Of a stretch of 64,000 nucleotides of DNA, positions 7,401-64,000 are shown one piece after another. Below the pieces are notes generated by a model. It ran no database searches. It was not told the DNA's origin and saw nothing but the letters and a program-made list of their open reading frames with translations. The DNA is from a virus. The position numbers and the translations under genes are program-made. The stretch covers positions 3,562 to 67,561 of IMG/VR virus record IMGVR_UViG_3300031857_000130; one strand, written 5' to 3'. Numbering within the stretch: the first letter of the stretch is position 1; each line of letters opens with the position of its first letter.

Positions 7401-10400
7401 CGCATTGCAGACGCCATCAAGCGTGTTGAGGACACTGGACGCTACACTTGGAACGGCTCTGAGTTTGAGCCGGTTGAGGACGAGGATGTGAGCGTGCGCT
7501 ACTCGCTTGCTGCAAGTTCTGAGGTTGCGCAGAAGGATGCCGAATACATGGCAGCCGTGGAGTCTGGCGACATGGAGAAGGCGCAGCGGATGGTGGATGC
7601 GGCGGCGAAGGCTGCTGGAACTATCTGGGATGTTGGGTCAGGTCAGATGTTCCACGGCACGCGCTCTTCTTTTACGAGGATGCGGGTTCCGGCATTCTTC
7701 TCCCCTAACCCTGAGGTTATCTATGACCAGCAGCAAGAAAACAAGACTCACGACTACGGAGACCAGATCAAATCGTTCTTTCTGTTCGGAAAAGTTAAAC
7801 AGGGCGTCGAAATGCCGGAATATACTTGGGGAGTGCGAAGTGTGGAGGATGACAGAATCGCCGTCGCGGAAGGTGAGGGGTATGACATTATTGAGCTTGT
7901 CCCTTATGGTGACACATCGGGTGGCGAAAACTCATTTTTTGTAGCTATTAACCCATCCTCCATCAAATCCGCCGACCCCGTCACCCGCGACGACGCTGGC
8001 AACGTGATCCCGCTTTCCCAGCGTTTCCAGACTACTTCGCCGGACATTCGTTACTCCTACGCTCAAACGCCAGCGCAACGCTCGGCTGTCAGCCAGTTCA
8101 AGGCGGATATTGGCGAGGCTGCAAAAGGCACCGCTGAGTTTGCCGACTACGAAGGTCGTCCGATCAAGGATTACGAGATTCTGCCGCACGCGAAGATGGC
8201 CGCAGGATTGTATCAGGATGCCGCTGCAAGGTTGCTCACAAGCCTTGAAAACGATGGGCTGACGCTGCAAGACATTTACTTGAAGCTCAAGGAGAACGAA
8301 GATTTTCGCCTAGAGCTTGGCTTGCACAAGATTGGGGGCAACATCGCTGAACTTATTTTGACGGCGCAGATTCTTCAACGCTCCAAGAACGCCATCAACA
8401 AGGCCAGAACTCCTTCACAGAAGGCGCAGGCGGAGAAGATCAGCGACACGATTGCTGATTACTTTGACGGTCTTAGCACAGAAGCAGGCCAGCTATTGCG
8501 CAGCGTTCAATACATCTACGACGACCCGCGCACCAAGTTCTCATTTGAGCAGTTGCAGACTGAGAAGAAGATGAAGAAAAACGGCACCGAGGCCGTGAAC
8601 AACAAGATGGAAGGCTCGCTGCCACAGGTGAAGGCGAATCTGTCCAATGAGATTCCGAAGGTGGACGAGCAAGCGGCTACGGCTGCTGCTAAAGAAACGG
8701 AAGCCGCCGTCGAAGAAGATCAGGACGCGATTGATTTGGCGGAAGGCGAGGCGACTTTGACCGACAAGCAAAAGAGTGCTTGGGAAAGATTCAAGGACGC
8801 CATTCGCACCAAGGGGCTGATTGCAAAAGCTCTGAAGGCCATCAGAGAGCGCAGGGATGGCAATAAAGCTCGAATGTCCATTTCTGGAGAGGCGAGAAAT
8901 GCCATATTCCAGATGACAGAAGAAGAGCTTATTGCTTTGGATAAGAAGCAGGATGAGATTATGGCGGAAGCCGAGAAAGCCTTCTTCTCGGAAGGAGATA
9001 ATACCGCCAAGGCCAAGCGCAAAAAGATGGTCAATACCGCTAAGAAGCGATCTGAGCAAGGCAAGGAAGTCGAAGCTGGCGTCAAAGACCCGACTCTTGC
9101 CAAGGTTGCACGCGCAATCAACGTGGCTCGCAAGAACATCAAAGGCCCGTCTGGCAAAGCTATCCAGTGGAAGCAGCTATTCAGCCAGAAAGGCTCCACG
9201 GTTGAGCAAGTTCGCAAGAACATCCTCGCCGAGGTGATGGACAATGAAGCCTTCCGCGACATGTCCGATGACCAGAAGAAGATGGTTGCCGATTACTTCG
9301 CTGAATCTTGGAACAGCGAGCGCGAGAAGATCATCAATGACATGATTGACAAAAATCGCGATATGCTTGCAAATCAAGACAAGAAGAAAGCCGCAAAAGC
9401 TCTTAACGACTCGCGCAATCGCATCCTTGAAGCAGTCAACCTTGGCGTTTTCGACAACGACGAGTTGGTTGCCATCCTTGGCGACAAGTTCGGCATTAAG
9501 ATGAAGTTCACCGAGGCTGAGAAGGCTAAGCTACGCGACCTTGCCGAGAAACTTCAGGACGACACGCTGAACAAGGCCAAGCGGAATAAGCTAGGACGCG
9601 AGTTCCTGATGGAGCTTGAGGCGGCTTCGCAAGTTCCGATGGCTGAGTTGATGGCGAACTTCTGGGTGTCATCGGTTCTGTCTGGCCCGAATACCATCAT
9701 CTCGATTGGCTTATCCTTCCTCAATGCCACGGGAATCAATATCGTGGGCATCCATGTGGCGAGGGCGGTTACCGCCTTTGCCAAAGGCGATGTGGCTGGT
9801 GCTATTAAAGCCATCACCACGATGTTCAGCGATTACGCGAGGCATTTGCTATCTTTCCCATCTGCTATGAATCGCGCTTGGCAGTATCTCTGGAGCGGCG
9901 ACGTGTCGTTCCTTGAGTCTGGTGCCAACGACCCATTCAAGAAGGTGAACTCGCTCAAAGAGGTTGCCCGCTATCAGGTTGTGGCTGACCTGATTGCCAA
10001 AGACCCGAATGCTGTAAAAGCCGTCTTTGGACGCTTCATGCAGTTCATGAGTCGCCTTCTGACCGCGCTTGACGGCTTCAACGTGATGGTGACGAAAGCT
10101 GGAACGCTTCACGCCGCCATGTTGCAATCCAACATCACGCCTGAGCAGATTCGGGACATCACGCTGAAGTCCGACCTCAAGATTTACAAGGATCGCATCG
10201 TCAAAAGCGAGTTTGGTGGCAATTACCCCACTAGCCTACGCGATAAGGCTTACTTGAACTCGTTGGCAGAAGCCGAGATGTATGCCGACTTGTCCAAGCT
10301 AGGACTCAAGGTTGAGAACCAAGACTATCTTGCGGCTGAATCGGCAATGACGCTTGACCCGACTGGCGTTGGCGGGCACTTCTACAATCTTGTGCGCTCT

Positions 10401-11627
10401 TTCGACACGCGCATCATGACTTCGACCAAAGAACGGTTGAAGCAGGCTGAAGCGGATTGGGCTGTGAAAAAAGACCCTTGGAATGCTCTCAACTACGTTG
10501 TCTGGAATGCGCTCAACTTCATCGCTGAACAGGGAACGAACATCACGGGCGTCCGATTCGCCCGATTTGCAGGCAACAAGTTCAACCAGTCTGTGAGCTT
10601 TATTCCGCTGGCTGGACTCCTTCGACTTTATGAAGCTGACAACGCCAAGCTGGAAAACGCACAGCAGGCTTTCCGTGACTCCATTTGGCGCAATCAGATT
10701 GTGGGCGTTGTGGTGACAGCCATTGGTGTTCAACTTATCAGGGCTATCTCAGACGAGCCGGATGACAAGAAGCGCGGTTGGTTCATCAACGGCGGCTGGA
10801 ATAACCTTACTCCTGCACAGAAGAAGCAGAAGCTCTCTGAAGGCCAGCGCGAATACACCCTTGGATTCGGCGACAAGGTGTTCAACTACCAGAACTGGCT
10901 TCCAAGCGCATTGCTGGCTGCTATCGGCAACGTCTCTGACATGATTCGCTATTCGCCCGATGAATGGAAATCAAAGGGATTTGCCAACCAAGTCATCACC
11001 GCTGGCGTTTCTGGCGTGCAATCCTCGCTGGAAATCCCCGCCCTTGCTCAGCTTGGGCAGTTGTTCGCCAACGACCTCGCCACCAAAGACCCGGCTGAAA
11101 AGGCCATCGGACGCTTGGGACAGGTTTTGGCAGGATGGGCTGGCGGATTCATGCCTCGCTTCCTCAAGGACATTGATTACATGACGGCACCTGACATGCG
11201 CCGTTACACCACGTTCTACGAGAAAGTCGCATCGCACATCCCGGTTTACCGACGCTACGTTGGCAACGACTACTACGATATTCTTGGCAACAAGATTCAG
11301 AAGAACGCATACCCCGGCAGCCGTGATTTTGGCAAGCTCAAGGACGAGCCTGAATACCAGATGCTTGGCGCTCTGAACGCCCGTGGAATCTGGCTGACAC
11401 CCGCCAATGCCGAATACCGCATGGTGGGCAAAGGACGCTACCGCCGCCGTTTGACGCAGGAAGAAGCCGACGCTTACAGCCTTGAGACGGGCAAGCTCTA
11501 CAAGCAGATGATCCTGCGCTACGGCCCTAGAGCCTTGCAAATGCCCGCTGAACGCGCTAAGGACTACATCTCAGACAAGGCAGACGCCATGCGTGATCTT
11601 GCCCTCCAAAGAGCAATGAGACGATGA
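1488..11627 (+). CDS. Giant polyvalent (LPD-type) internal virion protein
   Basis: 3379 aa. Gly/Ala-rich N-terminus; HExxH motifs (THENMH, LHEVQHWIQEQEGF); LPD23-like TGWFPGKYDGKMRWEVPD; ART-like block DAEYMAAVESGD...FHGT...IKSADPVTRDDAGNVIPLSQRF; DSGAF TIM-barrel-like insert. Confidence 0.85.
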   Translation: MPQWYEITRSEDYQTLAPEEKAQAKARFFEKQILPSLQSDDELNNNEAIQYAYEKFMQLPDDTGQGYVTSMLGAAGRGFGEMVPGAIEGVGALTGSEGLREAGQSLRGTLEEVAPVNPIYAESVPVKLAGVGGQALSMLATAGAGGAAGKALGGVGAVGKGAQGAALGSAFLQGAAGGAREAEQYGMTGPEAYLKTLAGGMTEAGTELLPFGMASETALAKRMFAGAPRATTFAGAVGSEFGEESLGQIASNITTKALAPAGVETPGITEGALEAGLYGAFGGGVMGGINALIPTAPEKQTAEQKQWQAEINATPVDVSPPITPEESQKNATEGGIPVVTPDGAVSWMPAVSQAIAQQGPQPQGMPSDIEQRLKALTENPEIEVAARTLNETKDVPFTDAAAETAANIVAQNAEISMQPPVQPEQEAEAPAVVEMPAPTQVGEAPLSEGAERNRAIIADAAAKMRGQLPPEVSAGLESVIPAQPTTPPEDALQIQIPDESLLREKRPEMELQGMGQQNAQPEEVAAEGEEVITPQGTPTPATEGMFTPGGVGSERDATKPEQMTPEELTSIAKQAKEWASTPISEIKRKYQAEFGASDAYMAAYPYAAEIYQERQVALSKITDKKAQKQHASNIQSALEDRKPVSAEAVDTYGIRLPEGYIKQGELYIFQPGATGEPVQAAPSAAQAVKATAPGPVSQGELILEETPKQSASRIKNNMTRFASGMSAIGDLRKGTYARAGHKNYGVGFDVGLLSKNAINELAQIILNLRTQVFIDSGAFSNFKKAIKAPVTGKKVEPLNFDQILAKYDEIIAAINDANLVEETDYPRPMLVMPDVIGNQAESLSLIEKYKNWIAVESSNSTSIPIIPIPLGELSLSVAYNRILEILGSNTLGIKIDPRRFVVGIPSNAEAISRNDLAKFLSQSKPPRIHFLGAAADKNINPLIDVVAENSPTTQVTADASKIRSAILKGVSDGKTRNQAIFDALYQEDDPLVILDAIKKQIPQTTTVATNETAPPSAKGEAVASAELQPVEGSIPTVPKVSAEETVKSTEKSLEAKTPALVNRRVEQILNAGGRTMVDDLDKFLKSLSDQEFNDFVRSNFFEDPSVAIKPTDSRQAKNAKRKAATDALAQGFIPSPKAQKEANAFEQAERELEQEQQKQNAQSISNLFGPKRTNPVRNQVKSADVEQAIGELQNSGEVPSAVFTWRGTSADMRRERAKYQAQFPGAVAAAEAENVEGVFENGMSFIFTDRVVVTDLDRARAKEDGVTPAVAAAKRVLTHENMHKGFWLLPAKQQAQIMRFLREMFPAEELDELAKVYKQYADWRTNPAHEVALLDERLQKYIEETKTIPTDGVWKQFWDYIKEIWRKWTGKPKGEPTLSSMKDVVRLLRGALKNAHKARPDVTVGGDMVLFSYAGEQAIENLPEERRQFMRDSLDTAKAMAAAGKNSEEIRAVTGWFPGKYDGKMRWEVPDEGARLRNTTADWNPLENWLDHPELFKAYPKSRNIPVRLDSSLKSGGVFAGNGIRIHPDASDGVLNILLHEVQHWIQEQEGFATGSSPAAELANLPRDQEVAEVARNLRVWWTRSVPPSRRVEIKDQLRERYGSGELTTLGMEIPDESAIEMLEAWESATQFMQPQEKAAADVLIKAIYDSRERAFGETGEQPTSQLRYLNNAAEIEARDVQARQKLTPEQRRATAPYSSENIAKEDAIVMFGRGTQASISYASESAQNSAAGQQAARSTSYTPRQLEVFFGVRKAYEQMPKQNGPSVPLSELFNKTSELVDNLTQAEFDKIVQDMYADNAALQNDQFEPNSIVILPTGAMQSLSNPALLTMDDAIQRIEGFTADNEDVDSWPDDVQQRFEESAYNSAIQDNDVLAAWELASPDVRDPKLEPLVEIARKGRQHDVEWDKVANGLRAAGKYSIESVDAELAKRLPQDIIDAAQEDTSALDEWVASDEVLADAKKPFIAEVEQRIADAIKRVEDTGRYTWNGSEFEPVEDEDVSVRYSLAASSEVAQKDAEYMAAVESGDMEKAQRMVDAAAKAAGTIWDVGSGQMFHGTRSSFTRMRVPAFFSPNPEVIYDQQQENKTHDYGDQIKSFFLFGKVKQGVEMPEYTWGVRSVEDDRIAVAEGEGYDIIELVPYGDTSGGENSFFVAINPSSIKSADPVTRDDAGNVIPLSQRFQTTSPDIRYSYAQTPAQRSAVSQFKADIGEAAKGTAEFADYEGRPIKDYEILPHAKMAAGLYQDAAARLLTSLENDGLTLQDIYLKLKENEDFRLELGLHKIGGNIAELILTAQILQRSKNAINKARTPSQKAQAEKISDTIADYFDGLSTEAGQLLRSVQYIYDDPRTKFSFEQLQTEKKMKKNGTEAVNNKMEGSLPQVKANLSNEIPKVDEQAATAAAKETEAAVEEDQDAIDLAEGEATLTDKQKSAWERFKDAIRTKGLIAKALKAIRERRDGNKARMSISGEARNAIFQMTEEELIALDKKQDEIMAEAEKAFFSEGDNTAKAKRKKMVNTAKKRSEQGKEVEAGVKDPTLAKVARAINVARKNIKGPSGKAIQWKQLFSQKGSTVEQVRKNILAEVMDNEAFRDMSDDQKKMVADYFAESWNSEREKIINDMIDKNRDMLANQDKKKAAKALNDSRNRILEAVNLGVFDNDELVAILGDKFGIKMKFTEAEKAKLRDLAEKLQDDTLNKAKRNKLGREFLMELEAASQVPMAELMANFWVSSVLSGPNTIISIGLSFLNATGINIVGIHVARAVTAFAKGDVAGAIKAITTMFSDYARHLLSFPSAMNRAWQYLWSGDVSFLESGANDPFKKVNSLKEVARYQVVADLIAKDPNAVKAVFGRFMQFMSRLLTALDGFNVMVTKAGTLHAAMLQSNITPEQIRDITLKSDLKIYKDRIVKSEFGGNYPTSLRDKAYLNSLAEAEMYADLSKLGLKVENQDYLAAESAMTLDPTGVGGHFYNLVRSFDTRIMTSTKERLKQAEADWAVKKDPWNALNYVVWNALNFIAEQGTNITGVRFARFAGNKFNQSVSFIPLAGLLRLYEADNAKLENAQQAFRDSIWRNQIVGVVVTAIGVQLIRAISDEPDDKKRGWFINGGWNNLTPAQKKQKLSEGQREYTLGFGDKVFNYQNWLPSALLAAIGNVSDMIRYSPDEWKSKGFANQVITAGVSGVQSSLEIPALAQLGQLFANDLATKDPAEKAIGRLGQVLAGWAGGFMPRFLKDIDYMTAPDMRRYTTFYEKVASHIPVYRRYVGNDYYDILGNKIQKNAYPGSRDFGKLKDEPEYQMLGALNARGIWLTPANAEYRMVGKGRYRRRLTQEEADAYSLETGKLYKQMILRYGPRALQMPAERAKDYISDKADAMRDLALQRAMRR

Positions 11628-39915: not shown

Positions 39916-41721
39916 ATGACCAAAGCCCCACAGAAACCCGTTGTCGCCAAACTGACAAAGGGGCCGCTGAACACCTACGGGATGCGGGAGAAGTTCAGGG
40001 CCAAAAACCAGTTGGAGATTGAGCTTATCTTGATGCAAGTCAGGTCAGGCTCGCTCCGACATCGGGATGGCAGCGTGAACGCCAAGGGCTTTCCTGCGTG
40101 GCGGCATTTCTGCAACGCGGTTGACATCCTGTGGAACTTCCAAGGATCGCAAACCAAGTTCCTGTGGCATCCTTGGGCGCTAACCATGATTCGGGACGCA
40201 TTCAAGCACAAGCGTCTGGCGATCACATCGGGTGGCTCAGGCGGCAAGACTGACGTTTTCGCCGTCTATGCCCTCGTCTGGTGGCTGGCAAAGCCGTTCA
40301 AGAATGTTGTTCTTGTGAACACTACCACGAAGGCAGCAGCTATGGGCCGTATCTGGGGTCGTATCGTGCGTTATTTCAACGGCATGGTAGCGCCACCTCC
40401 AGGCAAGCTGGTTGGCTCATCCTACTCCATCAAGGCGGTTGATCCTAACACGCAGGTTGTCATGGAGGAATACGGAATCCGACTGTTTGCAGGTGAACCC
40501 GCCAAGGCAGCAGAATCCGCGACAGCCATTCGAGGCTTGAAACACGGTGCCGGTGGTAAGCTGATCGTGATCCTTGATGAGTGCGCCGAACTCTCATGGA
40601 GCATCGTTAACACATTCGAGGAAAACATCACGCAGAACCCGAATGTCCAGCTTATCGCCCTAGCCAACGCCAATTCGCCTTTTGACACGTTTGGCCGTCT
40701 TTGCGAGCCTTGGGATGGTTGGGATAGATACGACCCGTCTTGGGACGAATGGGAAGGTAAAGGAGCGCATGTGAGGCGAATCAACATCGAGACTTCGCCC
40801 AACATTACCGAGGGAAAGGTTATTTACCCGTTCCTAATGACTCAGGAGATGCTTGCCGAGAAGCGGGAAAAGCTGGGGCCGAACACACGCTCATACTGGC
40901 GAGGCGTCCTTGGTTCGTTCATGCTGGATGCTGACGACGAGACAATCTACTCACCCGGCGAGCTTCTGCGCATCCCGAATGACTGCGTGTGGCAGGGGAT
41001 TCCAACGAAGGTTGCTGGCTTCGATATTTCCCACACAGCAGGTGGAGACAAATCCGTGCTCACCGTTGGCAGCATTGGCGTCTGCACCGATGGTAAAAAG
41101 CGTCTCAAATTTGAGAAACACTACGAACTCAATGAAGACATGGGGCGCAAGGACGTGGACAGAACCACGCAGATTATTGAAAAGTTGCGCGAGATTTGCA
41201 CGAAGGAAGGAATTGCCATCGAGAACATGGCTATTGATGCCAGTGCGGGCGGCGGCAAAACCTTTGCTGACGCCATCTGGTCAAAATGGAGCAACCGCTT
41301 TCTCCGCGTGGACTTTGGCGGCAAAGCATCCGACCGACCCGTATCTTCTGCCGACAGGGAGAAATCCAGCGTCCGATATGGCAATAAAGTGGCAGAACTT
41401 TGGGGAGTGGGCAAAGAACTGATTCGCTGCGACCAGCTTCGCAACATCACGAAGGAAATGGCGGACGACATGACTTCACGCCGCTACAAGGAGAACAAGG
41501 CGCAGGACGGCGGCTCACGCATCAAGGTGGAATCCAAGGTCGAGATGAAGCAGCGCATTGGACGCAGCCCCGACCACTTTGACAGTGCGGCAGTTCTGAT
41601 CGAGCTTTGCCGTGAACGTCATGGCCTGTCTGGTATCGACAAACCGGGGAATTACAGCAGCAAGGGCAAATCACCGCTCAAAAAGCGGTTTGATTCGCTG
41701 GCGTCGTTGTATGCGGCGTAG
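39916..41721 (+). CDS. terL: Terminase large subunit
   Basis: Walker A SGGSGGKT, Walker B IVILDE, ANANS, nuclease residues in GFDIS...GGDKS, AIDAS, SPDHFDS. Confidence 0.9.
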   Translation: MTKAPQKPVVAKLTKGPLNTYGMREKFRAKNQLEIELILMQVRSGSLRHRDGSVNAKGFPAWRHFCNAVDILWNFQGSQTKFLWHPWALTMIRDAFKHKRLAITSGGSGGKTDVFAVYALVWWLAKPFKNVVLVNTTTKAAAMGRIWGRIVRYFNGMVAPPPGKLVGSSYSIKAVDPNTQVVMEEYGIRLFAGEPAKAAESATAIRGLKHGAGGKLIVILDECAELSWSIVNTFEENITQNPNVQLIALANANSPFDTFGRLCEPWDGWDRYDPSWDEWEGKGAHVRRINIETSPNITEGKVIYPFLMTQEMLAEKREKLGPNTRSYWRGVLGSFMLDADDETIYSPGELLRIPNDCVWQGIPTKVAGFDISHTAGGDKSVLTVGSIGVCTDGKKRLKFEKHYELNEDMGRKDVDRTTQIIEKLREICTKEGIAIENMAIDASAGGGKTFADAIWSKWSNRFLRVDFGGKASDRPVSSADREKSSVRYGNKVAELWGVGKELIRCDQLRNITKEMADDMTSRRYKENKAQDGGSRIKVESKVEMKQRIGRSPDHFDSAAVLIELCRERHGLSGIDKPGNYSSKGKSPLKKRFDSLASLYAA

Positions 41722-41769
41722 AACTTGCGCTGCACCGAACGCTTCGCGTCGGTGAGCTATTGGTTGGGC
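41718..41769 (+). mobile_element. attC-like site 0 (short)
   Basis: gtagAAC-ttgc-gctGcacc...ggtgagc-tattg-GTTgggc; overlaps the terL stop; spacers are 1 nt short of canonical. Confidence 0.7.
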
Positions 41770-41773
41770 AGAC

Positions 41774-42046
41774 CTAGCGGCGTCCGAGTCGGTTCGATAA
41801 TTCGCGGCATAGACGTGCGGCCTTTTGGTTCGGCGTTTCCGGCTTTTTGAAGACCTGCACCAACACCGCGACAATCGCGACGATGAGCAGGATACCGAGA
41901 ACCAGACCAAGACTGATCCAGATCGGCGACAATACCCACCACCACGACCATGCAATGACATTGCAGAGTTTTAGGGTGATGAAGACGATGGTGAGGAGAC
42001 CGGCGAAGCCGGTTCCTCCTGATTTGCTGTTATTTTGGTTACTCAT
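41774..42046 (-). CDS. Cassette 1 ORF: small two-TM membrane protein
   Basis: GGTGFAGLLTIVFITLKLCNVIAWSWWWVLSPIWI. Confidence 0.8.
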   Translation of the reverse strand: MSNQNNSKSGGTGFAGLLTIVFITLKLCNVIAWSWWWVLSPIWISLGLVLGILLIVAIVAVLVQVFKKPETPNQKAARLCRELSNRLGRR

Positions 42047-42068
42047 GGTCGTAGATAATTCAAAAGAT

Positions 42069-42157
42069 GCCCAACAAGGCGTGGGATCTAACCGCCGGAA
42101 GCGTCTTTCTTGAAGTCGGGCTTCCCACTCGGCGGTAGATCCACTAGATCGTTAGCG
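42069..42157 (+). mobile_element. attC site 1
   Basis: gcccAAC-aaggc-gtgGgatc...gatccac-tagatc-GTTagcg; canonical 5/6-nt spacers. Confidence 0.88.
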
Positions 42158-42507
42158 GAAGAATCCAGAGCCGCCTTGAAATCCTCGCTGGGGCAATACC
42201 AGTCATCTTTCACGATGTGGCCGATGCGCTTGATTTCCGACCACGATCCTTCCACTCGGATGGTGCGTCCTTTCAGTTGCGACCACTTTTCCACACCAGC
42301 GATTTCCAAGATGCGGAAGATGTGATGTCCAGCCACGCTCAAGACTTGGTGATGGCTGAACGATTTTGGCAGATACAGCGCGTAGCCTCCAAAGCCTTGC
42401 CCCATTCCTCCGAAGTCGAGATGCAGCCAGCAATCCAAGATGCCGCGCTCTGCCATGGTGATTTCTGCCGATTCGATCACGGCGTTTTTGATTTCGGTGT
42501 CTTTCAT
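42088..42507 (-). CDS. Cassette 2 ORF: conserved phage hypothetical protein
   Basis: NAVIES...GQGFGGY.L...I.RILEIAGVEKW.QLKG; stop lies inside attC1. Confidence 0.8.
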   Translation of the reverse strand: MKDTEIKNAVIESAEITMAERGILDCWLHLDFGGMGQGFGGYALYLPKSFSHHQVLSVAGHHIFRILEIAGVEKWSQLKGRTIRVEGSWSEIKRIGHIVKDDWYCPSEDFKAALDSSANDLVDLPPSGKPDFKKDASGG

Positions 42508-42545
42508 ATTTCGGTGTTTTCTTGTGGTTTCCTGCCGCTCCCAAC

Positions 42546-42631
42546 CGCTAACAAGACGGTCGAGGCAACGGCGATAAAGTCTCTAGTCGAGGTCGGCGTC
42601 CTTCGCGCCGTGCCTCACCTCTGCGTTCTCC
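42546..42631 (+). mobile_element. attC site 2
   Basis: cgctAAC-aagac-ggtCgagg...cctcacc-tctgc-GTTctcc. Confidence 0.88.
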
Positions 42632-42936
42632 TCATCAGATTTGGGCGTCGGCATGATTGCGACGATCCGCGCACAGACAAGCATGTCCTCCAGCTTGTTT
42701 TCCCACAGTTCGCACCCGAGAGTGTCACCGGCTGCATTCGTGAGGATGATTTCTCCGTCGTCGTAGCCGAGTTCTTCAGCGATATTGCCGATGGCGGATT
42801 CGATCACGTCGAGTCCGGTGCAGTTGCCTCCCACCGTGGTTGTTTTGGTGGCCGTGTATTCCCATTGCTGGAAGGTGAGTTCGACGGTTTGCGTGGCCAT
42901 GCGGCCTGATGTCGTAAGATTTGGATCGTAGTTCAT
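42583..42936 (-). CDS. Cassette 3 ORF: acidic hypothetical protein
   Basis: 117 aa; stop lies inside attC2. Confidence 0.75.
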   Translation of the reverse strand: MNYDPNLTTSGRMATQTVELTFQQWEYTATKTTTVGGNCTGLDVIESAIGNIAEELGYDDGEIILTNAAGDTLGCELWENKLEDMLVCARIVAIMPTPKSDEENAEVRHGAKDADLD

Positions 42937-42959
42937 AGTCGTTAGGTGATTCGGAAGAA

Positions 42960-43082
42960 GGAGAACAAGGCACCTGCTGGCAACCTGCCGTCAGTAGTTT
43001 CGTCGGCGCGGGGCGTCGTTAGGAGTGGCCATTTTGTTTCGGAGTTGGAGTGTCGGCAGGTGCCAGAGGGCGGACGCTCCCT
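42960..43082 (+). mobile_element. attC site 3 with degenerate R' (GCT)
   Basis: ggagAAC-aaggca-cctGctggca...tgccagagg-gcggac-GCTccct. Confidence 0.75.
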
Positions 43083-55086: not shown

Positions 55087-55144
55087 CTACTTTCTGTAAG
55101 GTTCGTGTTGCTTTTCAGCGCACAAAGTGATAAGATTGACTTCT

Positions 55145-55885
55145 ATGAGTGAAACACCAAAACAAGAACTGGCAACGAAACAACCGTCTCTCAAAGAGCT
55201 AATCAGCGGCGACAAATTCAAAGAACAGGTGGCCTTGGCGTTACCAAAACACATGACGCCCGAAAGGTTCACGCGCATTGCTCTCACAGCCATCTCACGC
55301 ACGCCAAAACTGCAAGACTGCACGCAGACGAGCCTGTTTAAGTGCCTTCTGGACTTGTCGGCTGCTGGTCTTGAACCTGATGGTCGCCGAGCATATCTCA
55401 TTCCATACGGCAGTGAATGTACTTTGATCTTGTCATACATGGGGATGATCGAGCTTGTGCGTCGTTCGGGCGATGTCGTGAGCATCCGCTCCGAGCTTGT
55501 CTGCGAGAATGACGAGTTCTCATGGGAGAATGGCAAGATTACTCACAAAGTCGAATGGCGCAAACCACGCGGAGAAATTCAAGCCGTGTATGCCGAGGCC
55601 GTTCTGCGCTCTGGCGAGACTCAGACCGCAACCATGACCAAAGACGAAGTTGATGCTATCCGCAAACGCAGTCGTTCTGGCAATAGCGGCCCTTGGGCTA
55701 CGGACTATGGCGAGATGGCCAAGAAGACAACTTTGCGCCGCTTGTGCAAGCTGCTGCCGCTTTCTTCTGAGGTTGCCGAGCACATCGACAAAGATCAGGA
55801 CATCCTCATCGAACGCGATGTGACCCCTGTGGCAAAAGCAACTCTCAACCTTCCTAGCCAAGCGGAGGTGGAAAATAATAATTGA
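55145..55885 (+). CDS. recT: RecT-family single-strand annealing protein
   Basis: LPKHMTPERF.RIA...GLEPDG..AYLIPYG...Y.GMIEL..RSG...PW..DY.EMAKKT. Confidence 0.92.
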   Translation: MSETPKQELATKQPSLKELISGDKFKEQVALALPKHMTPERFTRIALTAISRTPKLQDCTQTSLFKCLLDLSAAGLEPDGRRAYLIPYGSECTLILSYMGMIELVRRSGDVVSIRSELVCENDEFSWENGKITHKVEWRKPRGEIQAVYAEAVLRSGETQTATMTKDEVDAIRKRSRSGNSGPWATDYGEMAKKTTLRRLCKLLPLSSEVAEHIDKDQDILIERDVTPVAKATLNLPSQAEVENNN

Positions 55886-55916
55886 CAACAACCGCTTGTT
55901 GTCCTAACAAAGTTAA

Positions 55917-56654
55917 ATGAACTATGACGCATCAGCAATTCAGCAAAAAAGGCGGTCAGGCAAAAACACTTGCAAAGAAAAAAGCAGCGCAATCCAATTT
56001 AGCCAAGGCAAGACAAAAACTGACAGAAAAAAGATTGAAATCAAAGAGGGTCAAACTTTTGGAAGATTAACAGCTATTTGTTTTAATGGAAAAGATCGTT
56101 ACAACCATCCTATTTGGATGTTCTTGTGCACTTGTGGAAAGAAAAAAGAAATAAGCGCAATAAGTGTTTTCAAAGGCGTAACACGTTCGTGTGGTTGCCT
56201 AAGAAAAGAAAATTCAAAAATAATGAAATCCACTCATGGTCTTGGTCATTTAGATGAGTATGTAATATGGTGCGGAATAAAACAAAGGTGCTTTAATCCA
56301 AAATGCAAAGAATATCGTTTATATGGAGCTAGAGGTATCATTCTTTGCGACGCTTGGAAGCATGATTTTAAAGCATTCTATGAATACATTGGCCCAAGGC
56401 CAACAAAGCACCATTCCATTGATCGAATAGACAGCAATGGCAACTATGAGCCGGGCAATGTACGTTGGGCAACACATTTAGAACAGGCCAACAATGTTAG
56501 AAGCAATACTATCCTAACATGTCGTGGAGAATCTAAAACAATGGCCGAATGGGCTAGGTCTCTCGGTATTGCATATGATATGCTATGCCAGCGCGTTTGC
56601 AAACTTGGATGGTCACATGAAAAAGCTATACTTACCCCCAAATTATTCACATGA
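55917..56654 (+). CDS. HNH homing endonuclease
   Basis: GQTFGRLT, YGARGI, SIDRIDSNGNYEPGNVRWAT..EQANN; AT-rich, between recT and the exonuclease. Confidence 0.9.
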   Translation: MNYDASAIQQKRRSGKNTCKEKSSAIQFSQGKTKTDRKKIEIKEGQTFGRLTAICFNGKDRYNHPIWMFLCTCGKKKEISAISVFKGVTRSCGCLRKENSKIMKSTHGLGHLDEYVIWCGIKQRCFNPKCKEYRLYGARGIILCDAWKHDFKAFYEYIGPRPTKHHSIDRIDSNGNYEPGNVRWATHLEQANNVRSNTILTCRGESKTMAEWARSLGIAYDMLCQRVCKLGWSHEKAILTPKLFT

Positions 56655-57445
56655 TTATTTACAATGAAACTGAATATAGGCAATGGAACGCTCTAAACTA
56701 CTCAGCGGCCAAATCGCTGCTGAAGTCGCCCAAGCATTTTCAAGCAGGACTCAATCGCAAGTTTGAGCCGTCGCGTGAAATGATGATTGGCACATACGTT
56801 CACGAAATCGTTCTGGAAGGCAAAACGCCATCCTACATCGTTCGTCCAGACGACATTGATCTTCGCACTAAAGAAGGCAAGGCATGGCGAGATAAAAACG
56901 CAGGCCGTGAAATCCTGTCACCTGAAGATGACGCCGCCGTTCGCATGGCTGCTGATGCTGTTCGCAAAAGCGCGGATGCGCAGTATCTTCTTGGTCGCTG
57001 CCCCAATCGTGAACATGGCATCGTGCAGACGTTCGGAGGCGTGGAAATCAAGGGCAAGCTGGACGCTTACGGGACGGATGAGGCTGGGAAAGCCATCATC
57101 CTGGATTTTAAGACAACATCTAACGCTGACCCTGAAGAGTGGGGCCGTAAGGCTTTTGGTCTCCGCTACCCAATGCAGTCGGCTTGGTATCAGGCATTGC
57201 TTGCTTTGGAGCTTGGCCTTGAAGAACCACCGGCTTATTTTTGGCTTTGTGTCGAAACGCAAGACCCGTTTGACGTGGTGATTTACCAGCCGCCAGAAGA
57301 GGCTCTGGAGATTGGCCGCGCCCAGATGAAGCATTGCGTGGAAACCTACAAGTCCTGCAAAGATAGCGGAAAATGGCCGGGATACAGCAAGGGCATCATC
57401 GCTTTGGAAGTGCCAGCATGGGAACGCCGCCGCTGGATCAAGTAA
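56651..57445 (+). CDS. PD-(D/E)XK exonuclease (RecE/ExoVIII-like)
   Basis: GT.VH..VLE, KGKLD, ILDFKTT, Y.MQ.AWY. Confidence 0.88.
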   Translation: MIIYNETEYRQWNALNYSAAKSLLKSPKHFQAGLNRKFEPSREMMIGTYVHEIVLEGKTPSYIVRPDDIDLRTKEGKAWRDKNAGREILSPEDDAAVRMAADAVRKSADAQYLLGRCPNREHGIVQTFGGVEIKGKLDAYGTDEAGKAIILDFKTTSNADPEEWGRKAFGLRYPMQSAWYQALLALELGLEEPPAYFWLCVETQDPFDVVIYQPPEEALEIGRAQMKHCVETYKSCKDSGKWPGYSKGIIALEVPAWERRRWIK

Positions 57446-59531: not shown

Positions 59532-60158
59532 ATGAAAACACAAATTAAGAACAGGTTTACAGGCAGTGTGATACATGAGGGCGACTACGCTTCTATTTAT
59601 GAGGCAGTTGCGACGGCCATCAAATCAAAAACTGACCTTCGCTGTGCTGACCTTCGCGGCGCTGATCTTTGCAATGCTGACCTTCGCGGCGCTGACCTTC
59701 GCGGCGCTGACCTTCGCTGTGCTGATCTTTGCGGTGCTGACCTTCACGGTGCTGATCTTTGCGATGCTGACCTTCGCGGTGCTGACCTTCACGGTGCTGA
59801 TCTTTGCGGTGCCAAATACGCAACATTAATCATTGCACAAACACGCATTCTTCCAGACGGGGAAATTATTGGTTGGAAGAAGCTGCAAAATGGAAGTATT
59901 GCAAAATTGCGCATTCCTGAATCCGCAAAACGCTCTAATGCTTTTGGTCGCAAGTGTCGATGCTCTGAGGCTATTGTTGTGGCAATTTATGATGGTGACA
60001 ACGAAGTGGATGTGGGTTTTTCCTCGCACGATCCAGCCTTTGAATACAAAAAAGGCGAAATCGTCAGGCCCAAAAAGCCGTTTTCTGAAGACTGGCAAGA
60101 TGAGTGTGCTTCAGGTATTCACTTTTTCATCACGCGAGAGGAAGCTGAAAATTACTAA
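59532..60158 (+). CDS. Pentapeptide-repeat protein with DUF5758-like C-terminus
   Basis: (ADL[R/C/H][G/C])n; IGWKK...RKCR...ECASGIHFFITREEA. Confidence 0.9.
   Translation: MKTQIKNRFTGSVIHEGDYASIYEAVATAIKSKTDLRCADLRGADLCNADLRGADLRGADLRCADLCGADLHGADLCDADLRGADLHGADLCGAKYATLIIAQTRILPDGEIIGWKKLQNGSIAKLRIPESAKRSNAFGRKCRCSEAIVVAIYDGDNEVDVGFSSHDPAFEYKKGEIVRPKKPFSEDWQDECASGIHFFITREEAENY
59632..59813 (+). repeat. 15-bp tandem repeat encoding pentapeptides (~12 units)
   Basis: gctga(c/t)ctt(c/t)(g/a)cgg(c/t)-like units. Confidence 0.9.
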
Positions 60159-60544: not shown

Positions 60545-61384
60545 ATGGATATTGTTTTGCTCAAGTCCCTTTTGAGAAGCCCAATCGCTTTTCAGCCTAT
60601 TTTTGTCAAAATCGCCGGTTCTGTGAACGCTGGTTTGCTTTTGAGTCAGGCGTTTTATTGGAGCGACAAAACCACCGACCCTAATGGGTGGTTCTACAAA
60701 ACGCAGGCAGAATGGGAAAAGGAAACGTACTTGACTCGTTATGAGCAGGAATCCGCCCGGAAACAGCTTAGATCGCTTGGATTTTGGGAGGAAACCCTTG
60801 AGGGTATTCCAGCCAAATTGTTTTATCGCATCAACATGGGTGCGCTCTATGCCAAAATGGTGGCCGTTTCAAAAATCGAGTCCTCCAGTATGCGGGAAAA
60901 CCACATACTAGAAAGCGGAAATCCAGCAAACAGGATTGGGGTAAAACCACATACTACTATATGTACAGAGAGTACATCAGAGAATACATCTCCCGAATTA
61001 AAAAATTCGGGCAACGAGCGGGTTGAATTGTTCGCTTTCCCGAAAGGGGTCGAGAAGCCAATCATTCATTCCAATCCACCCGCAAAGCGTGGCAGACCGC
61101 CAAAACCCGCCGATCCTCGCCATCAAGAAGCCATCGAAATGTGGCGCGACATGTGGAATGAGCGGTTTAACACGCCGTATTCCTTTCATTCTAAGGACTT
61201 TAAGCACCTAAAGGAGTTTTTGCGAGCCAATCCAACTGTTGAAGTCTCAAAAATGAGAGACGCATTAAGCGGAATTTGGTCGCTTGAGGTGCAAAAGGGC
61301 GCTTTTGCCCCCAACTCCATCCGAATCCTCAACCTTTGCGACCTTTGCCTTCGCTGGAACACCATCATCGGAAACATCCAATAA
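60545..61384 (+). CDS. Phage replication initiator/replisome organiser
   Basis: PIAF.P...GSV.AGLLLSQ..YW...GWFYKTQ.EW..ET.L.R.EQE.ARK.L. Confidence 0.8.
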   Translation: MDIVLLKSLLRSPIAFQPIFVKIAGSVNAGLLLSQAFYWSDKTTDPNGWFYKTQAEWEKETYLTRYEQESARKQLRSLGFWEETLEGIPAKLFYRINMGALYAKMVAVSKIESSSMRENHILESGNPANRIGVKPHTTICTESTSENTSPELKNSGNERVELFAFPKGVEKPIIHSNPPAKRGRPPKPADPRHQEAIEMWRDMWNERFNTPYSFHSKDFKHLKEFLRANPTVEVSKMRDALSGIWSLEVQKGAFAPNSIRILNLCDLCLRWNTIIGNIQ

Positions 61385-61655: not shown

Positions 61656-61914
61656 TTTACCCAAATACACCCAAGAAAGGAACACCATGATAGCAAACCT
61701 AGACACGCCACCTCAATCGACTCATCCAGATTATGACTGGTGGGTTTTCTCAACCGCCCTCAGCGAAGGCTGGTTGATGCTTTATTGCCCCAAGACTGGC
61801 AAAACAGGCTCAGTACGCAATCCATCGAAAGCTGAGTGGGCCAAGGCATTTGATGCGCCAAATAACCCTTACCAATGGCATGACAATTCTCGTGTCGTCA
61901 TAGACGTTAAATGA
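61642..61914 (+). CDS. Hypothetical protein
   Basis: Coupled to dnaB; start uncertain. Confidence 0.55.
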   Translation: MTKNNLPKYTQERNTMIANLDTPPQSTHPDYDWWVFSTALSEGWLMLYCPKTGKTGSVRNPSKAEWAKAFDAPNNPYQWHDNSRVVIDVK

Positions 61915-63296
61915 CACCTCCTCCCACAATCGAACAGCTTCTAGCGTCCTTCAAAGACGCCCAGCTTCCGTGGTCTGAGGAGGCTGAACAGACGGTTGTT
62001 TCCTCGATTTTCCACCACCCAAGGCTGATTGAGGAGTGCCCGCCCGTGGATTCATTCTTCCACGTCCATCACCGCTGGCTGATCGAGGCTTTCTTGGAGC
62101 TTTTCAACGCTGGAAGGCCGATTGATCTGCCTTCCGTGACAATCAATCTCCGTGAAAAAGGGCTTCTCGACAACATGGGAGGCCCGGCGAGGCTCAGTGT
62201 CTTCTACTCGAACATCCCGATGGTGTCGCATTTCGGCTACTACGCCGGGATTGTGCGGCAGAAATACCAGCTTAGGGCCATGATTGGCGTTCTTGCCGCT
62301 GGAATGGACGTTCTTTTGCGTTTTAACGAGTCGGAGGGTTCTTCCGCTGCCGATACCCTCCAGAACGTCATTAAAAGCGTTGTGGAGGCTGCAAATGACG
62401 ATGGCAGCCCTGATTTGGAGCATCGCCCGATGGCGGAACTCATTAACGAGGTCTTGCAGGACGCCGAGGATATGGCGAAGTCGGGGCGGAAAATCACCGG
62501 GGTTTCGACTGGTATCGCCGAATTTGATGACATCATGGGCGGTCTTGAACCCGGATGCCTGACGGTTGTGGCGGCTGAGTCCAGTGATGGCAAGTCCAGT
62601 TTGTGCCGACAAATGCTCGAATGGGTGGCTATCGAGGGTGGTTGCGCCGTTGACTACACCTACGAAATGATGCCCAAGGCGGAAGTGAAGCGCATTTTGT
62701 GCTCTCAGGGCAAGATTGACGCCAAAAACCTCAAAACGGGGATGCTGACGCGCAATGAAATGCTCAACCTTGGCCTTGTGGCAAACAAGGCGGCGAAATG
62801 GGACTTCAGCATCGTGGATGTGGCTGGAAAGACGATTGAGCAAATCTGCCGCGATATTTCACGCAGGTCGCGTAAATTGAACGCTGGCAAAAGGCTTGTT
62901 GCGATGATTGACTACATCCAGCTATGCAAGACTACCGAAAATTCTCAAAATCGAGAACGCGAGGTTGCTCACATCACGGCTACCACCAAGCAGTGCGCCA
63001 AGATGACGGGGGCACACATCATCATGCCTTCGCAGGTGAACAACGATGGCGAGGTGCGTGAATCCCGCGCCATTGAGCAGGACGCCGACAACCTCATCAA
63101 GATCAAGAAGATTGGCGTCAAGAACGACGGCCCCTCATGGAAAAAGGGCAAAGAAGAGGAGAAGCCCAATTTCCAGCGCCAGATGTTCTTCCACAAGGTT
63201 CGTGACGGTGAACGCTACCGCACCGTGGACATGGAGCTTGTCGGCAAGCACTTCAGGTTTGAGGTTTTGCGAAAAGAGGTTGATTCTGAGGGATAA
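61911..63296 (+). CDS. dnaB: DnaB-like replicative helicase
   Basis: EAEQ.V..S, TGVSTG, AAESSDGKS, YEM, IDYIQL, SQVN, RESRAIEQDAD. Confidence 0.92.
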   Translation: MTPPPTIEQLLASFKDAQLPWSEEAEQTVVSSIFHHPRLIEECPPVDSFFHVHHRWLIEAFLELFNAGRPIDLPSVTINLREKGLLDNMGGPARLSVFYSNIPMVSHFGYYAGIVRQKYQLRAMIGVLAAGMDVLLRFNESEGSSAADTLQNVIKSVVEAANDDGSPDLEHRPMAELINEVLQDAEDMAKSGRKITGVSTGIAEFDDIMGGLEPGCLTVVAAESSDGKSSLCRQMLEWVAIEGGCAVDYTYEMMPKAEVKRILCSQGKIDAKNLKTGMLTRNEMLNLGLVANKAAKWDFSIVDVAGKTIEQICRDISRRSRKLNAGKRLVAMIDYIQLCKTTENSQNREREVAHITATTKQCAKMTGAHIIMPSQVNNDGEVRESRAIEQDADNLIKIKKIGVKNDGPSWKKGKEEEKPNFQRQMFFHKVRDGERYRTVDMELVGKHFRFEVLRKEVDSEG

Positions 63297-63308
63297 TTGG
63301 CGTAAGGT
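63280..63308 (+). promoter_or_regulatory. Sigma70-like promoter reading into the second cassette array
   Basis: TTGATT-N17-TAAGGT. Confidence 0.6.
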
Positions 63309-63324
63309 TGAACTTATAAACAGG

Positions 63325-63448
63325 CCAGAACGCGGAGTTCAGTCAGTCCGAAACGAAGCCCACAACCCAAGAAGACCAATGAGCACCCTAGAAACCACTG
63401 ACACAGCAGTCCAAGCCACGAGGACTTGGATGCACCGTTTTGTTCGCC
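63325..63448 (-). mobile_element. attC-like site A
   Basis: Minus strand ggcgAAC-aaaacggtgcatccaagtcc...ggactgactgaactccgc-GTTctgg; L arms imperfect. Confidence 0.7.
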
Positions 63449-63735
63449 TTTTGGGCTATGTTTGTCCAGTCTGCGAGGATGTGAGGCACCGTCTCAAGGG
63501 ACACCGCTGCTCAAAGCTGGATGGTGAGCACGGACTTGCTGCCGCTACCATGAGAGCATGGGAGCAAGAGTGGGGAGACGGAGCCAGCGGAGATGCTGGC
63601 GCGATGCTCAGGCGAGAACTGCGGAGCGTAATCCGCCGCTACGGTCAGGAGTCGGACGTGACCGCATATCAGGCCATCGGCGCGCTCCGCATGGTGGAAC
63701 ATGATATTGTGGACATGCTCGACTGCGCAGCGTGA
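63379..63735 (+). CDS. Cassette ORF, hypothetical (CxxC)
   Basis: ATG lies in the loop of attC-A; stop lies just before attC-B. Confidence 0.7.
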   Translation: MSTLETTDTAVQATRTWMHRFVRLLGYVCPVCEDVRHRLKGHRCSKLDGEHGLAAATMRAWEQEWGDGASGDAGAMLRRELRSVIRRYGQESDVTAYQAIGALRMVEHDIVDMLDCAA

Positions 63736-63736
63736 A

Positions 63737-63875
63737 GGCGAACGCTCAATCTCTGCCAACCCTGGGGCACGACCAGGACAACACGACAAAGGCCCAATAA
63801 CATGACCGAAGCAAGCACACTAACAATGACCCAAGACCAGCCCCAGAGGTTGGTAGCAGAGCCGGGTTGTCCGCC
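63737..63875 (-). mobile_element. attC-like site B
   Basis: Minus strand ggcgGAC-aacccgg-ctctgctaccaacctctgggg...ccccagggttggcagag-attgagc-GTTcgcc. Confidence 0.75.
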
Positions 63876-64000
63876 CGAATGGCTGGAAGAGATAGTCGAA
63901 ACTATCGGCATTACCGATGGCGTCGATCTCGTTGAATGGCACCTAGACCAGACGGGCGACTACATCGTCAAAATCGAATACGGCGAGGAAGAAATGAGCT
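63802..64000 (+). CDS. Cassette ORF, partial (runs off the window)
   Basis: MTEASTLTMTQDQPQRLVAEPGCPPEWLEE...; start lies in the attC-B loop. Confidence 0.65.
   Translation, partial: MTEASTLTMTQDQPQRLVAEPGCPPEWLEEIVETIGITDGVDLVEWHLDQTGDYIVKIEYGEEEMS

Follow-up and report, generated by a model that had tools for sequence, protein, structure and literature searches.

Relation to described cassette systems

Integron cassettes are known as a bacterial device. Here, two arrays of small genes combined with attC-like sites were analyzed in the virus record IMGVR_UViG_3300031857_000130 (67,561 bp), positions 3562-67561 of which form the stretch of 64,000 nucleotides that is called the window in the following. 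Array 1 is located on the minus strand, and array 2 follows a dnaB-type replicative helicase gene on the plus strand. As the latter feature lies at the very end of the window, array 2 continues at the start of the record (locus L002). The record ends repeat 57 nt, indicating a complete, circularly assembled genome of 67,504 bp, which belongs to an uncultivated, probably lytic freshwater phage from lake water. It is likely that the region behind dnaB is the start of an integron-type cassette array without integrase, i.e., a CALIN, in which attC sites cluster but an integron integrase is missing, with inverted genes and an integrase acting in trans.

The definition of a CALIN, at least two closely spaced attC sites with no intI nearby, was taken from Cury et al. 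(2016; PMC4889954). Array 2 comprises five sites within 2.1 kb and array 1 four sites within 1.4 kb, and no intI was found in 67.5 kb. For phages, reports are limited to a handful of attC clusters, which had been detected with models and assayed using a bacterial integrase (Qi et al., 2023; PMC9892861). Five of six tested phage attC sites recombined with attI1 under IntI1, the sites of phage TJE1 recombine with attI1, and CALINs with methylase cassettes are known in phages (PMC9892861). The arrays described here share with the phage CALINs at least two attC-type sites in a row, single small open reading frames (ORFs), the lack of intI and of a tyrosine recombinase, methylase cassettes (Dam here, N6_N4 in the relative G001) and, for the better-matched sites, model scores in the TJE1 range. 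They differ in that the box is mostly GAAC/GTTC, that the large loops hold start codons, and that the arrays are two in number, both of them closed by a compact resident site that is conserved, with turnover seen directly between related genomes. Furthermore, the ORFs are on the attC bottom strand with the site at the 5′ end of the gene, whereas the TJE1 sites are opposite to the ORFs and at their 3′ ends.

Similarity to the bottom strand of class 1 attC sites was found in the AAC/GTT R box, the two spacers (about 5 and 4 nt) that stay unpaired, the surplus of bases in the distal arm and the AA^C crossover (the caret marks the junction). Class 1 sites are 57-71 nt long with short terminal loops, compared to 52-136 nt here. 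In class 1 integrons the top strand carries the genes, each upstream of its site, together with intI1, attI and Pc, whereas the genes described here are inverted, without integrase, attI or Pc-like promoter. The canonical arrangement, with the ORF on the attC top strand and the site downstream, was seen in the class 1 and TJE1 controls but in neither array. No description of inverted attC cassettes in phages was found in the literature searched; the supplements of PMC9892861 may hold orientations.

A further comparison is offered by the promoter early stem-loop (PeSL) cassettes of T4-type phages (Arbiol et al., 2010; PMC2839356), which likewise involve small non-essential genes, repeated structured flanks and insertion, deletion or replacement among close relatives. 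Circular intermediates were proposed for PeSLs and would be expected here as well. PeSLs combine a strong promoter with a terminator stem-loop and are exchanged by homologous recombination, whereas neither a promoter nor a coding-strand terminator was found in 62800-64000, the sites differ in sequence and one fixed breakpoint is used.

Cassettes and their boundaries

In the preliminary description, the end of the window had been interpreted as a cassette array with two attC-like sites whose top strand is minus. Both sites are present. J0, the site of the ORF A cassette (63325-63448), reads on the plus strand box1 CCAGAAC with the crossover AAC at 63329-63331, arms at about 63337-63349 and 63422-63436, and box2 GTTCGCC at 63442-63448. 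J1, the site of the ORF B cassette (63737-63875, top strand likewise minus), reads on the plus strand box1 GGCGAAC with AAC at 63741-63743, the spacer GCTCAAT, arm a at 63751-63768, a 73-nt loop with the ATG at 63802, arm b at 63842-63863 with bulges of 1 and 3 nt, and box2 GTTGTCC at 63866-63872 (or GTCCGCC at 63869-63875). The ORF A cassette on the plus strand (63331-63742) measures 412 nt between two AA^C crossover points. ORF A (63379-63735, plus strand) encodes 118 amino acids with a CPVC motif and has no assigned function. The plus-strand orientation of both ORFs, the position of the ATGs 63379 and 63802 between the site arms and the matching cassette ends were all found in the sequence as described. 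The perfect inverted match of 9 nt consists of GTTCGCCTT (63442-63450) and AAGGCGAAC (63735-63743), so that the cassette end is complementary in 9/9 positions to its own box2 region and could form the R''/R' pair expected in an excised circle. Inverted pairs of at least 8 nt number 29 within 1,001 nt, and the 9-nt match alone is therefore at chance level.

Extension beyond the window, as proposed earlier, completed ORF B and showed that array 2 continues to a total of five sites including the terminal one. ORF B (63802-64000 and onward to window-equivalent 64185, plus strand) encodes 127 amino acids, the last 10 codons of which fall past the next junction J2 (AAC at 64153). J2 is an attC-like site at window-equivalent 64149-64280 (L002 206-337) and is followed by a Dam gene. 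The fourth site is located at 64688-64787 (L002 745-844) and the compact terminal site at 65363-65427 (L002 1420-1484), both in window-equivalent coordinates; the coding strand of all three is plus.

Array 1 (41718-43078, coding strand minus) is located between a DUF6378 gene and convergent structural genes. It comprises cassettes W (ORF 42936-42583, DUF5406 in Pfam), Y (ORF 42507-42088) and Z (ORF 42046-41774, a small membrane protein), all encoded on the minus strand. The sites on this strand are at 42631-42546 and 42157-42069, with a compact terminal site at 41769-41718. The leftmost box (43078-43076) reads AGC in the window as well as in G001 and G002, whereas L069 has AAC; all other boxes defined by junctions end in AAC.

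The decisive evidence for a cassette array comes from relatives in viral and metagenome collections, which were aligned by blastn. The ORF A unit is common to the window and G001, to G003/L039, L040, L041/L042, L047 and L048, with 87-100% identity. Homology always extends from 63328 (GAACG) to 63743 (...AAGGCGAAC), while the flanks are unrelated, with five kinds on the left and seven on the right. Through dnaB and ORF A, G001 matches the window with 99% identity, and from ORF B onward again with 98%. In between, at window positions 63741-63744, it carries 723 additional bp between ...GGCGAACG^ and ...CCCAACG^; this cassette encodes an N6_N4 DNA methylase (PF01555, 7e-20). Identity between the two genomes drops after GGCGAACGCC (window-equivalent 64148-64157), within the 3′ end of ORF B. 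Contigs from four further public runs were also compared. In those of runs X13 and X18 the methylase cassette precedes ORF B, and two other left neighbours of ORF B were found in those of X8 and X9, joined at 63740 and 63736, respectively. Exact breakpoints at AAC 63329-63331 and 63741-63743 recur in many independent contexts. The comparison with relatives supports the earlier interpretation as a cassette array and confirms that the feature is real and more than chance, which the sequence features of the window alone do not show.

Array 1 differs between genomes in the same way. The window carries W, Y and Z, G002 carries X and Y, G001 carries X alone, and L069 has no cassette. Across the window, G001 and G002, the junctions of X with the array end, X with Y, Y with the array end, W with Y, Y with Z and Z with the array end all lie directly after AAC, with the sequences GAAC^GCAGAGG (W to Y, X to Y) and CTAAC^GATCTAG (Y to Z). 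When joined to the array end, Y, X and Z read CTAAC^, CCGAAC^ and CCCAAC^, respectively, each followed by the identical CAATAGCTCACC... L069 represents the empty site, in which the backbone and AAC are followed directly by CAATAGCTCACC. In both arrays, all cassette junctions lie directly after AAC, and since this triplet is shared, AA^C and AAC^ are indistinguishable.

Small metagenome contigs represent arrays of the same type, with four sites in 1.1 kb (L040) and four sites in 1.9 kb (L047), all ORFs being on one strand. In L047 (2,060 bp) the 3′ part of ORF A is found at the contig start and the 5′ part at the end, with three other cassettes between them; this could be due either to two copies of the ORF A cassette in one array or to a circular or mis-joined assembly. 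Several ORFs extend 30-57 nt beyond the next junction (ORF B, the G001 methylase, L040 1097-1372 and L047 1312-1992), so that their tails depend on the neighbouring cassette.

Both arrays end in a compact site starting AAC-CAA-TAG. The last ORF crosses the junction, stops at the TAG of the terminal site and ends in ...NQ in array 2 of the window, in the backbone gene of L069 and in Y of G002. The two terminal sites share AAC-CAATA-GCT and a bulged C, and their stems differ compensatingly (CACCGA/TCGGTG and GAGCCG/CGGCTC). A search for terminal sites with two 15/16-mers returned 46 loci, eight of which truly carry the site, the rest being chance matches.

For ORF A, no Pfam family was matched. 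Its 12 homologues are all nameless metagenome proteins. Bacterial and archaeal genomes yielded no relatives, so that ORF A could not be connected with a bacterial integron. A protein atlas search gave no informative relative of ORF A (top score 0.81). For ORF B, Pfam and phrog searches revealed no convincing family. The word GAACGC was considered as a genome-wide signal and rejected, as it is common and mostly coding (55 occurrences on the plus strand compared to about 16 expected).

Site architecture, attC model and polarity

A table of 21 site rows was compiled from the window and its relatives. Read along the coding strand, each site shows an AAC box, an unpaired 3-6 nt spacer, a stem, a variable loop, a second spacer and a GTT box. 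The stems comprise 11-23 bp, and the distal arm holds extra bulged bases: unpaired bases are more common on this arm in 18 of the 21 rows, the three exceptions being the window copy of J0, 42157-42069 and the L039 copy under an alternative pairing. Over all rows the spacers are 0-8 nt long, often 5/4 or 4/3, which is similar to the six class 1 control sites. The GTT box, which the scan requires, is found 41-125 nt downstream of AAC in 21/21 rows. For the J1-type sites, counting covariation column by column in a MAFFT alignment was given up because the arms of J1 and the others were not in register, and compensatory differences between sites are given descriptively only.

With 18 bulged base pairs and -20.8 kcal/mol, the stem of J1 (63737-63872) was reached by none of 100 dinucleotide shuffles of the whole genome in the same search. 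At thresholds of -14, -17.5 and -20.5 kcal/mol the genome gave 11, 3 and 1 scan hits, respectively, compared to 5.8 ± 2.6, a mean of 0.47 (three hits in one of 100 shuffles) and none in 100 shuffles. Two strong hairpins of the same layout were seen in L038 (G003) at 6374-6507 (-24.6 kcal/mol) and 8444-8587 (-18.6 kcal/mol); neither matched the class 1 attC model with default filters.

This model was derived from the class 1 array of phage P1 isolate MH445380 (described in PMC9892861), which with its annotated genes served as positive control. The generalised scan identified a site just downstream of each gene (6/6), and on the bottom strand all six sites begin with the crossover box and have their surplus bases in the second arm. 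A covariance model of 60 positions and 21 pairs was built from these six bottom strands only and searched against 128,690 bases made up of the window and loci, which covered the genome except for record positions 1558-3561 (window-equivalent 65501-67504). The default search yielded 15 hits at E ≤ 10, consisting of the six training sites, two of their reverse strands and seven phage sites. All seven phage hits are full length and on the coding strand, with bounds that agree to 1-2 nt, and no reverse-strand hit was obtained at any phage site. The search of window positions 1-40000 gave no hit at E ≤ 1.

In this genome, J2 scored 24.6 bits and 64688-64787 scored 26.6 bits. With filters off, the minus strand of array 1 gave 24.0 bits for 42069-42157 (E 4.4e-4), 21.7 bits for 42548-42631 (E 1.7e-3) and a weak match of 12.2 bits for the terminal site 41718-41769 (E 0.43). 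Of the nine sites in the genome, four are found at E ≤ 0.01, two are weak (E 0.05-0.43) and three are missed (J0, J1 and the AGC site). Hits in relatives include L013 5827-5914 (23.5 bits), L013 6966-7080 (20.3 bits) and L047 467-552 (25.4 bits), and copies of the ORF A site in L040, L041 and L039 were matched at E 0.013-0.063. In phage TJE1 three hits were obtained at 23.6-26.9 bits, the next one scoring 14.1 bits. Judging from their number and place, these three hits presumably correspond to the sites of the published CALIN; they are on the strand opposite to the ORFs, at the ORF 3′ ends. The preliminary description had named failure of attC models as a result that would speak against it. 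With this small class 1 model, such a failure was observed for J0 and J1, not for the array as a whole.

The coding strand appears to be the attC bottom strand in both arrays, i.e., the cassettes are inverted compared to class 1 and TJE1. This polarity is supported by the agreement of exchange point, bulged arm and model-preferred strand, which is also what places the top strand of J0 and J1 on minus. The same polarity had been claimed for a second locus on the other strand, and array 1 indeed follows the same rule. In L013, L040, L041 and L047, model hits and crossover box likewise identify the coding strand as the bottom strand.

With the site ahead of the gene, every cassette has to bring along a translation start of its own, in or just after the site. 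For ORF A, ORF B, the Dam gene after J2, G001_J2, L048_83 and L041_R, the best ATG falls within the loop. For the 64692 site, the G001 methylase and L047_1294 it falls within the first arm, and for both array 1 cassettes, L040_987, L040_1324, L040_1627 and L047_120 it follows the GTT box by 10-38 nt. The suggestion that attC could double as a portable translation-initiation module is only partly supported and not general: candidate starts of ORF A and ORF B lie inside the site, whereas in six cassette types the ATG follows 10-38 nt after it. The start of ORF A is itself ambiguous, being either ATG 63379 or ATG 63430 (residue 18), the latter with a Shine-Dalgarno-like GAGGA at 63419-63423. The first 17 residues are restricted to the close clade and represent the least conserved part. 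In more distant homologues the protein begins at about residue 14-22, and the protein atlas entry starts at residue 18.

A Pc-like promoter had been proposed just upstream, on the plus strand at 63280-63308. The hexamers TTGATT (63280-63285) and TAAGGT (63303-63308) are present with a spacer of 17 nt and match the consensus in 7 of 12 positions, but a promoter consensus scan of 62800-64000 found no sigma-70-like site, which does not support this proposal. Two terminator-like sites were identified in the same region, both on the minus strand inside dnaB and none on the coding strand.

The following mechanism is proposed. Each cassette would consist of a single small gene with a single folded attC-type site at the gene 5′ end, with the coding strand as recombinogenic strand and strand exchange at the AA^C box. 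The phage backbone keeps compact resident sites at two loci, after dnaB (plus strand) and after the DUF6378 gene (minus strand). Gain, loss and exchange of cassettes at these loci by site-by-site recombination are evident from the nucleotide-exact presence/absence differences among genomes. The junction of an excised circle would read ...AAGGCGAA^C, after which the cassette's own site would begin. As no recombinase of the families searched is encoded by the phage, we infer that a tyrosine recombinase of the integron-integrase type, from the host or a co-resident element, operates in trans on the coding strand in its folded form. Recombination in trans is in line with the proposal for CALINs (PMC4889954), and recombination in chromosomal integrons is considered to be controlled by the availability of the bottom strand in single-stranded form (PMC13108822).

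Several observations weigh against this reading. The class 1 model misses J0 and J1, the two sites of the initially described region, as well as the J1-type relatives L040 983-1085, L040 1623-1716, L047 116-209 and L048 79-182, and its E-values are rough, the score of J2 falling from 24.6 to 17.7 bits with filters off. The structural scan was defined post hoc, after the sites had been seen, and requires the AAC/GTT boxes by construction. The full consensus RYYYAAC/GTTRRRY, as quoted for R' in PMC9892861, is matched perfectly by only three of the 21 box1 rows (GCCTAAC, GCCCAAC and GTCTAAC), and 16 of 21 have GAAC, which gives GTTC in R'. The loops are large and unstructured, with up to 73 nt, and whole-site folds of J0 and J1 on both strands were no better than those of shuffles (z-scores of -0.94, 0.00, -0.83 and -0.23). 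Neither an integrase nor a host nor a circle as product of recombination was observed. Protein-family searches took in only about 30 of about 95 ORFs, and profile searches of the whole genome covered only the known recombinase families. The phage encodes RecT and a PD-(D/E)XK exonuclease, so that another route of exchange exists. In L023, the structural scan saw no cassette sites between dnaB and the terminal site. Finally, the window copy of J0 is degraded compared to relatives (two mismatches and one wobble), with a fold of -7.3 kcal/mol compared to -11.9 to -14.3 kcal/mol in the relatives' copies.

The substitutions at 63338, 63343 and 63430 weaken the stem of the ORF A site relative to the copies in relatives. 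The C-to-A change at 63430, found in the window and G001, creates the ATG behind GAGGA and breaks a stem pair. These substitutions may reflect a trade-off between site function and translation start. In L023, whose DnaB is 55% identical, the terminal site is kept at 7464-7529, about 2 kb downstream of dnaB; it reads AAC-AAATGA-GCTGAGCCG... and scores 19.9 bits with the attC model.

Alternative explanations, genome context and significance

The hairpins could be RNA or transcription regulatory elements before small genes, similar to PeSLs, with shuffling by RecT and the exonuclease between similar elements. The phage encodes RecT (PF03837, 1.4e-47) and the PD-(D/E)XK nuclease, the sequence subfamilies of the sites (GAACGMTCAAW... 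and ...GGTGAGG...) could provide short homology, a start codon is held by or just after many sites, and PeSL-mediated shuffling as well as mini-circles are documented (PMC2839356). We consider this explanation unlikely, as the exchanging sites share only AAC (AAC^CAATAGC, AAC^GCAGAGG, AAC^GATCTAG, AAC^GACTAGC and AAC^ACGGATT) and the breakpoint is always the identical nucleotide; in addition, 62800-64000 is without sigma-70-like promoter or coding-strand terminator, and a bacterial attC model recognizes some of the sites in a strand-specific manner. This strand-specific match, which is full length and includes spacers and bulge, also bears on another single-strand DNA enzyme, either an HUH/Y1 transposase of the IS200/IS605 type or a phage recombinase of another kind, that would cut after GAAC, the attC likeness being convergent. 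The predominance of GAAC (16 of 21 box1 rows) over the canonical pyrimidine-rich box, the gene polarity opposite to integrons, the fact that no integron integrase is at hand and the many phage ORFs without known family would fit such an enzyme. However, PF01797 gave no match at E ≤ 1, there is a single hairpin per cassette and not one per end, and TAAC and CAAC boxes serve as junctions too, so that this origin of the sites is rated as quite improbable.

Ordinary phage mosaicism, with illegitimate recombination at microhomologies, selection for intergenic breakpoints and a chance likeness to attC, appears hardly credible. The relatives are densely mosaic, and the block ends inspected outside both arrays are gene borders without a common motif; GAACGC is a common word in the genome and the whole-site folds are unremarkable. 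Yet the identical nucleotide is reused in five to seven independent contexts, two arrays follow one rule, an empty-site allele exists, the two terminal sites covary with the bulged C kept, and the model hits are confined to the arrays. A bolder version of the inverted CALIN is speculative and rather doubtful in our assessment. The phage lineage could run a private mirror-image integron with a 5′ attC on the coding strand, docking at the resident backbone attC, trade between co-infecting phages, exposure of the strand by transcription, mutually silent phage and bacterial pools, and a site that combines recombination with translation start. Transcription would be a candidate for exposing the recombinogenic strand since in either array, the two being on opposite strands, the bottom strand is the non-template one.

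With respect to the inverted CALIN and its recombinase, the genome was searched with profiles of tyrosine recombinases (PF00589), integron integrases (TIGR02249), resolvases (PF00239) and Y1 transposases (PF01797). None of them matched at E ≤ 1, while reference genomes served as positive controls, and PF00589 had no match in G001-G003 either. The Rfam search of the window gave no match, which carries little weight, as Rfam is not known to contain an attC family. No blastn match to named phages was found for the array 2 region.

The backbone gene upstream of array 2 encodes the dnaB-type replicative helicase (61911-63296, plus strand; Pfam DnaB_C 2.9e-36, DnaB 2.6e-16; phrog_19 7e-64) and belongs to a region with an O-like initiator at 60545-61384 as part of the replication module. 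A RecET-like recombination module at 55127-57445 consists of RecT, an ORF without family and the PD-(D/E)XK nuclease (DUF3799). A pentapeptide-repeat protein with a DUF5758 domain is encoded at 59532-60158; its repeat region at about 59630-59815 aligns with G001 in several registers, and the repeat number varies among relatives accordingly. A single ORF of 3,379 codons spans 1488-11627, and the relatives are mosaic inside it.

The feature is real and unusual: the phage carries integron-type arrays with natural turnover, resident docking sites and a polarity opposite to the known kind. The core of the preliminary description is thus correct. The whole-cassette differences at one nucleotide and the empty docking site indicate that the cassettes are not relics, as the phage lineage has acquired some and lost others. 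Such a consistent inversion between gene and site, seen in two arrays on opposite strands, is not expected from capture out of a bacterial integron. It raises the questions of which enzyme acts, when the coding strand is single-stranded and how such cassettes arise. Under the speculative mirror-image reading, the inverted polarity would make exchanged phage and bacterial cassette pools mutually silent. The cargo comprises many small ORFans besides two kinds of DNA methylase, as would be expected of counter-defence genes. New genes of this type may therefore be sought in such arrays, which point to a phage-side cassette exchange system without earlier description.

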